Of a stretch of 64,000 nt of DNA, positions 35,571 to 35,601 are shown piece by piece. A program made the translations under genes and the position numbers. This DNA comes from Escherichia coli (GTDB taxonomy: Bacteria; Pseudomonadota; Gammaproteobacteria; Enterobacterales; Enterobacteriaceae), in the NCBI RefSeq assembly GCF_002854065.1, contig NZ_CP024147.1, one strand, 5' to 3'. Under the pieces are notes generated by a model. It searched no databases, was not told where the DNA came from, and saw only the letters and a program-made list of their open reading frames with translations. Position 1 is the first letter of the stretch, and every line of letters begins with the position of its first letter.

Positions 35571-35601
35571 ATGAAATGCCATCAGAACGGAATGAAATGC
35601 C
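35571..35601 (-). promoter_or_regulatory. Two 10-bp direct repeats (GGCATTTCAT on the yhjX coding strand) separated by 11 bp; YpdB/LytTR-type response-regulator site
   Basis: Plus strand has atgaaatgcc at 35571-35580 and again at 35592-35601 with exactly 11 bp between; lies 84-114 bp upstream of the yhjX start. Confidence 0.5.

Follow-up and report, generated by a model that had tools for sequence, protein, structure and literature searches.

A direct repeat in the yhjX promoter of an lpf-island-bearing Escherichia coli strain is very probably the known YpdB operator, with matching sites upstream of other transporter genes

Introduction

The sites bound by LytTR-family response regulators generally consist of two direct or inverted repeats of 9-11 nt lying 11-13 nt apart (PMC4847170). 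Among the described examples, the closest to the one considered here is that in the promoter of yhjX in E. coli K-12, where Behr et al. 2016 named a direct repeat of GGCATTTCAT YpdB sites A and B (PMC4847170). The kinase YpdA senses extracellular pyruvate, with a threshold of about 0.6 mM, and activates YpdB, for which yhjX is the sole known target (PMC5552118, PMC5431176). The phosphomimetic variant YpdB-D53E binds as monomers, at site A with high affinity (about 1.2 nM) and slow on and off rates, at site B with low affinity (about 21 nM) and fast on and off rates (PMC4847170). When site A is inactivated all binding is lost; when site B is inactivated the binding at site A stays (PMC4847170). 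Occupation of site B has been proposed to recruit RNA polymerase, and fast clearance, first of site B and then of site A, to give pulsed expression of yhjX, a scheme known as the 'AB-BA' model (PMC4847170). The motif has also been reported from several gamma-proteobacteria (PMC5552118).

A related arrangement is known from Bacillus subtilis, where Charbonnier et al. 2017 described two LytT boxes of 13 nt each, 8 nt apart, at pftAB; induction needs both of them, and the authors noted their resemblance to the YpdB site (PMC5626966). Here we compare with these systems a direct repeat found upstream of yhjX in a 64-kb stretch of E. coli DNA (hereafter the window), part of which is occupied by an lpf1 fimbrial island.

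Results and Discussion

The repeat and its identity with the K-12 operator

The repeat belongs to the E. coli core region yhjX-yhjY-tag-yiaC-bisC, which is syntenic with K-12. Read along the minus strand, that of yhjX, it consists of GGCATTTCAT (35601-35592), the 11-nt spacer TCCGTTCTGAT and a second GGCATTTCAT (35580-35571); on the plus strand these become ATGAAATGCC at 35571-35580 and again at 35592-35601, with the 11-nt ATCAGAACGGA between them. With yhjX starting at the ATG at 35487, as in the K-12 RefSeq annotation, the repeats span -84 to -114 relative to that codon. The similarity exceeds 10 nt, the 21-nt units AACGGCATGAAATGCCATCAG and AACGGAATGAAATGCCTTAGT being 76% identical and sharing the form AACGG[C/A]ATGAAATGCC... 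Both copies of the 10-mer in the window are those upstream of yhjX. Shuffled versions of the window lead one to expect 0.23 copies, and 4 of 100 such versions contained two; even with three mismatches allowed, the complete pattern of 31 nt has no second occurrence in the window, for an expectation of 0.01.

The 10-nt repeats and 11-nt spacer lie within the dimensions of LytTR-type operators in general, defined as two repeats of 9-11 nt placed 11-13 nt apart, and the agreement with the YpdB operator in particular extends to the word itself, the 11-bp spacer, the position ahead of yhjX on its own strand, and a longer identical stretch. This last was assessed through the surface plasmon resonance (SPR) oligonucleotide of Behr et al., whose 58-nt promoter part was designed to cover all the DNaseI-protected nucleotides of Fried et al. 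2013 (PMC4847170, Table 1). With the limits of the footprint taken from that oligonucleotide design, its sequence equals window positions 35567-35624 with no mismatches. The spacer is the same in both, so that the 11-bp spacing can be read from either. The proximal copy is site B, since the 'A bs' mutant oligonucleotide substitutes the distal one (PMC4847170, Table 1).

An earlier reading of this DNA from sequence alone had described two identical 10-mers, 11 bp apart and 84-114 bp upstream of yhjX, had matched them to the binding site of the LytTR-family regulator YpdB and had proposed a comparison with the published K-12 footprint. The description is confirmed by the sequence, and the attribution proves correct, with word, spacing and 58-nt fragment all in agreement with PMC4847170; the footprint comparison, made by way of the oligonucleotide in that paper, gives complete identity over 35567-35624. 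The same reading held the yhjX control region to be intact, which at sequence level it is: over the 241 intergenic nucleotides just two positions depart from K-12, both distal to the operator.

Nothing in the sequence speaks against the YpdB-operator explanation, and we consider it highly probable that the repeats are the known YpdB operator of yhjX and that they work as in K-12. For the identical K-12 sequence, YpdB binding and pyruvate-dependent induction of yhjX have both been published (PMC4847170, PMC5552118). The feature is thus already known, its site, spacing, binding kinetics and gamma-proteobacterial conservation having all been described, and its wider importance is small for that reason.

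Proposed action in this strain

Since the protected K-12 DNA recurs unchanged in the window, the K-12 mechanism is the best explanation here. Extracellular pyruvate would activate the kinase YpdA and, through it, YpdB. One activated YpdB monomer would then occupy the distal, high-affinity site A (35592-35601), and this occupation would let a second monomer onto the proximal, low-affinity site B (35571-35580), where it would offer a surface for the recruitment of RNA polymerase to a core promoter lying just downstream and composed of a TATGGT -10 and a poor -35 element. Quick release, from site B and then from site A, would make the expression of yhjX pulsed.

No gene in the 64-kb window encodes a LytTR regulator, and neither ypdA nor ypdB is present in it. 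As ypdAB lies outside the window, we infer that the operator works in this strain from the presence of ypdB in essentially all E. coli, the gene having been found in 5422 of 5426 genomes. The yhjX gene of this lpf-island-bearing strain can therefore be expected to answer pyruvate through YpdA/YpdB as K-12 does. The features of the locus are collected in Table 1.

Table 1. Features at and around the yhjX operator, in window coordinates.
Feature	Position	Strand	Remarks
YpdB site B, promoter-proximal GGCATTTCAT	35571..35580	-	published as low-affinity, filled only once site A is bound; no change in 8 divergent E. coli alleles
Spacer TCCGTTCTGAT, 11 bp	35581..35591	-	21-nt start-to-start period, ~2 helical turns
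YpdB site A, promoter-distal GGCATTTCAT	35592..35601	-	published as high-affinity nucleating site; first base (35601) G or T in E. coli
Stretch identical to published 58-nt K-12 PyhjX fragment	35567..35624	-	0 mismatches vs PMC4847170 Table 1
Third degenerate repeat unit CGTCATTCATTCC (core TCATTCATTCC, 35610-35620)	35610..35622	-	21 nt upstream of site A, same register
Conserved tract GCCGTTTT	35563..35570	-	directly downstream of site B; putative -35 region; GCCnTTTT 90% conserved in non-Escherichia species
CATAAA, alternative -10	35549..35554	-	invariant in E. coli, 56% conserved elsewhere
TATGGT, candidate -10	35532..35537	-	TAT(G/T)GT 88% conserved across genera
Shine-Dalgarno AGGAA with GGA motif	35495..35499	-	8 nt upstream of ATG; CAGGAA kept in most aligned species
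yhjX CDS, 400 aa, MFS transporter, oxalate/formate antiporter family	34285..35487	-	MFS_1; TIGR00890 472 bits; SfMCT 343 bits
Intrinsic-terminator-like hairpin and T-run	34241..34262	-	23 nt after yhjX stop; 8 pairs, 5 G-C; in island DNA

The core promoter and the remaining intergenic DNA

Conservation makes TATGGT the best candidate for the -10 element, in which case site B would lie at about -46 to -55; with CATAAA in that role, site B would instead fall at about -29 to -38. The assignment is inferential, since the literature searched gave no usable transcription start for yhjX and no usable CsrA data. The placement of site B directly upstream of a poor -35 element would correspond to the usual layout of an activator-dependent LytTR promoter.

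A scan for consensus promoters picked up neither TATGGT nor CATAAA, its sole match being TTACCA-16-AATAAT at 35655-35628. We reject this match as the regulated promoter: it is not conserved outside Escherichia, and with it the activator site would fall downstream of the transcription start. Overlapping the match is an inverted repeat with perfect 7-nt arms around five central nucleotides, ACCAAAT-TTATT-ATTTGGT (35634-35652, plus strand), which is found in E. coli and is not kept in other genera. Conservation also marks a second intergenic block, GCGATAGTGGGTGCTAACT (35656-35674, minus strand), which has a consensus resembling GATAG-N6-CTAAC and lies some 35 nt upstream of the third repeat unit discussed below. 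It is 70% conserved outside Escherichia, against 33-38% in the DNA around it, and has no match in Rfam.

The yhjX gene and the lpf1 island

The YhjX protein differs from that of K-12 by nine substitutions and by an altered C-terminal tail, which ends ...REAHI before the stop codon rather than ...REAHGSL, for a length of 400 residues against 402. Collinearity with K-12 extends through the promoter, the 5' UTR and 397 of the 400 codons. Followed down from 38000, the K-12 homology breaks off at 34291 and is taken up again at 26830, so that the lpf1 island (26831-34290) abuts the last yhjX codons. The sequence-only reading had the fimbrial island beginning about 330 bp beyond yhjX; this must be corrected, K-12 homology ending at 34291, inside those last codons. 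The figure of about 330 bp is the distance from yhjX to the first fimbrial ORF, lpfA1 (33420-33944).

In RefSeq the protein is labelled 'L-lactate MFS transporter', a name that derives from its match to the NCBIfam equivalog model SfMCT (343 bits against a cut-off of 320). In the E. coli literature, YhjX is a putative pyruvate or carboxylate transporter (PMC5431176). Database name and experimental literature therefore disagree.

The lpf operon contains two copies of IS1. The first (31175-31942) replaces the 3' end of lpfB and the second (32460-33228) splits the same gene, flanked by the 9-bp duplication CGGTCAGCG. Given this disruption of the chaperone gene, the fimbrial operon is probably non-functional. 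A near-identical strain, CUWW06 (99.99-100%), has the first IS1 without the second, and carries an additional IS1 between lpfA1 and yhjX as well as an IS5 in yhjY, neither of which is present in the window; its yhjX is annotated at the same length of 400 residues. As many as 38 places in CUWW06 match the IS1-containing query, and the lineage is evidently rich in insertion sequences.

Conservation within E. coli

A 321-nt promoter query matched 5422 of 5426 complete E. coli genomes, nearly always once per genome. Across eight divergent E. coli alleles the block 35562-35619 is nearly invariant, and it is the intergenic half nearer to yhjY that varies. Within the operator a natural G/T polymorphism is present at position 35601, the first base of site A on the yhjX strand. 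Site A reads GGCATTTCAT in the window and in K-12, and TGCATTTCAT in five of the six non-K-12 alleles sampled; the latter form was seen in strains M70, ZJ3920, WP4-W18, GN05064 and Z1002. The G-type 58-mer, that of K-12 and the window, is found exactly in 3599 of 5395 matching genomes and the T-type 58-mer in 1627 of about 5400. With some 30% of E. coli genomes reading TGCATTTCAT at the distal site, the invariant core of the word is GCATTTCAT. The description of the repeats as two identical 10-mers, true for the window and for K-12, therefore does not stand as a general rule. This common natural polymorphism at the distal, high-affinity YpdB site is a modest addition of the present work.

One further allele deserves mention. 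In E. coli DX6 (NZ_CP126345.1; our locus L010, 1730-2510) an IS1 sits precisely at the junction of YpdB site B with the spacer, flanked by the 9-bp duplication GAAATGCCA, which corresponds to window positions 35573-35581. Sites A and B are thereby moved about 0.8 kb apart. Under the AB-BA model this natural disruption of the operator should abolish YpdB-dependent induction.

Conservation across Enterobacteriaceae and a third repeat unit

We scanned one genome for each of 100,044 species with the pattern GCATTTCAT-N10-12-GGCATTTCAT, obtaining 94 loci. About 29 of these are enterobacterial yhjX promoters, from the genera Escherichia, Citrobacter, Raoultella, Trabulsiella, Shimwellia, Intestinirhabdus, Enterobacter and Buttiauxella, and the spacer is 11 bp in every one, with 10-12 permitted in the scan. 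In loci whose examined DNA extends as far as the start codon, the site precedes that codon by 70-90 nt, or by 136 nt in Buttiauxella. That sites A and B are kept across genera is a partly circular result, the loci having been retrieved by the motif itself. Elements that stand outside the search pattern are conserved as well: the opening TCC of the spacer (100% in 24 enterobacterial species, the remaining spacer bases reaching 79%), a third repeat unit (97%), GCCnTTTT (90%) and TATnGT (88%). Flanking segments in the same set are only 33-59% conserved.

The third unit, CGTCATTCATTCC, shares its last eight bases with those of site A plus TCC. The 97% conservation in non-Escherichia species refers to its core TCATTCATTCC (35610-35620), which lies within the protected stretch as that is represented by the published oligonucleotide. 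In Buttiauxella all three units are near-perfect copies. As delimited by the oligonucleotide, the protected stretch reaches 23 nt past site A and only 4 nt past site B, and this asymmetry allows it to be divided into 2+10+11+10+11+10+4 nt, that is, into three units. To judge from the same oligonucleotide limits, the published footprint agrees better with the presence of a third unit than with two sites alone. We predict that it is possibly a third, weak YpdB contact (35610-35622). Any such role would be cooperative, since in the published SPR measurements the third unit cannot recruit YpdB without site A (PMC4847170). Were the operator indeed a three-unit array, the third unit might receive a weakly bound YpdB monomer or shape the DNA, and might be needed for full or for pulsed induction.

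The operator before other genes and in other phyla

The remaining matches include some that adjoin other transporter genes. Paenibacillus massiliensis contains two loci (one of them L026, 790-4781) in which the site lies between genes for a LytS-type kinase and a LytTR regulator on one side and a yhjX-like MFS gene on the other. The cassette comprises a kinase of 581 residues, a regulator of 256, TGCATTTCAT-N11-GGCATTTCAT and an MFS protein 46% identical to YhjX, with an 8/10 match to a third unit upstream of the operator. Compared with YpdB, the regulator shows 59% identity over its whole length and 68% within the LytTR domain; for the E. coli paralogue BtsR the two values are 32% and 29%. 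The contiguity of ypdA, ypdB, operator and yhjX counterparts in this species suggests that a ypdAB-yhjX module has moved horizontally between Firmicutes and Enterobacteriaceae.

In four species of Limosilactobacillus, GGCATTTCAT-N11-GGCATTTCAT follows immediately on lytS-lytR and precedes lrgA-lrgB by 133 nt. The words are intact and the spacers diverged; in the locus L080, for example, the site occupies 4428-4457. Conservation of the operator across phyla was considered as a novelty and rejected, PMC5626966 already noting the similarity of the LytT and YpdB sites. At the level of sequence, the Limosilactobacillus examples extend that published similarity to exact identity of the half-sites. 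The three regulators adjoining the motif have in common a (P)xFN(H/N)TY segment in the LytTR domain, which BtsR lacks.

Five Kluyvera genomes place TGCATTTCAT-N11-GGCATTTCAT 69-75 nt upstream of a gene for an NCS2 permease, with spacers that differ between species. The permease is not YhjX but ybbY-like, matching NF008502 ('uracil/xanthine transporter') with 710 bits. In one of the genomes (L099) the site lies at 1666-1695 and the permease gene at 1764-3080, followed by peptidase T-like and MFS genes and preceded by a LysR regulator gene. The permease may be a rewired, previously undescribed target of a YpdB-type regulator, as we predict from this arrangement.

Some other matches were set aside. 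Those with a 12-bp spacer in Lachnospiraceae and Ruminococcus fall in several cases within or at the start of ORFs, in which the reverse complement, ATGAAATGCC, can encode Met-Lys-Cys. Among the Bacteroidales matches, no ORF on the same strand was detected downstream.

What seems to go beyond the published record is the target in Kluyvera, the cassette in Paenibacillus and the finding that the words are exactly identical, though any of these may have been described elsewhere. Occurrence of the operator before other transporter genes, in Kluyvera and in Firmicutes, could guide a search for pyruvate-responsive transporters. Taken together, the proposal that the yhjX operator is a three-unit array and also a transferable module that has come under use by other transporter genes, the Kluyvera NCS2 permease above all, is a tentative one, which we hold to be somewhat more doubtful than probable.

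Alternative explanations

The one real caveat to the view that the repeats act as a YpdB operator in this strain is that an intact sequence might lack a working regulator or transcript, the switch being dead or altered through loss or mutation of ypdAB or through an effect of the lpf island and IS1 on the yhjX mRNA. The window encodes no LytTR regulator; the island junction falls within the last yhjX codons and gives the gene a new 3' end, with a changed C-terminus and a terminator supplied by island DNA; and the lineage is IS-rich, as witnessed by the two IS1 copies in lpf and the 38 matching places in CUWW06, while the IS1 in DX6 provides an actual case of a split operator. Against this stand the near-universal presence of ypdB (5422 of 5426 E. 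coli genomes) and the collinearity with K-12 of promoter, 5' UTR and 397 of the 400 codons, together with the same 400-residue yhjX in CUWW06. We accordingly see only a small chance that the caveat applies. That the main binder is a different protein, such as the LytTR paralogue BtsR or an unrelated factor, with YpdB secondary, is more improbable again. The YpdB and BtsR systems are linked by feedback loops (PMC5431176), and LytTR operators have a common overall architecture (PMC4847170). However, YpdB has been shown in published work to bind this fragment directly, and to need sites A and B for doing so (PMC4847170), and the LytTR domain of BtsR, 29% identical to that of YpdB, is without the (P)xFN(H/N)TY segment.

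A third class of explanation would deny the repeat any operator role, attributing it to chance, to a neutral 21-bp tandem duplication or to an RNA element within a long leader whose promoter would be at 35655-35628. A consensus promoter match does exist upstream of the repeats at that position, and 4 of 100 shuffled windows did contain the 10-mer twice. Yet conservation is lacking for that promoter-like match, the full pattern is expected only 0.01 times and is kept across genera while its flanks diverge, and binding data for YpdB are in print. The RNA element was rejected on its own account, the predicted fold being no better than that of shuffled sequences (z = -0.68) and Rfam giving no match (best E-value about 0.9). 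Explanations of this class are effectively refuted, and the known YpdB operator is the reading that we retain.

Comparison with known systems

The yhjX operator of K-12 (Fried et al. 2013; Behr et al. 2016, PMC4847170) and that of the window share words, spacer, 58-nt stretch, gene and neighbours. The operators show no difference; the surroundings do, in that the lpf1 island here adjoins the 3' end of yhjX and the last residues of the protein are altered.

The LytT boxes of B. subtilis pftAB (ysbAB) resemble the present site in being served by a LytS/LytTR pyruvate-responsive regulator, in their 21-nt period and in controlling a pyruvate transporter (PMC5626966). They differ in that the target is of LrgA/LrgB type rather than an MFS protein, and that the regulator genes are adjacent, whereas E. 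coli has a separate ypdAB locus.

The BtsR (YehT) operator at btsT (yjiY) in E. coli likewise combines paralogous LytS/LytTR pyruvate sensing with a direct repeat and a single transporter target (PMC5552118, PMC5431176). The LytTR domains of BtsR and YpdB are, however, only 29% identical. Kraxenberger et al. 2012 reportedly found at yjiY a BtsR site with a different word and a 13-bp spacer.

Finally, Gram-positive operators of the AgrA, ComE, PlnC and VirR type share the general plan of two 9-11-nt repeats, 11-13 nt apart; they are placed upstream of a weak promoter (PMC4847170), a position predicted for the yhjX operator too. No consensus word is shared, and these operators serve quorum-sensing or toxin regulons rather than the control of a metabolite transporter.
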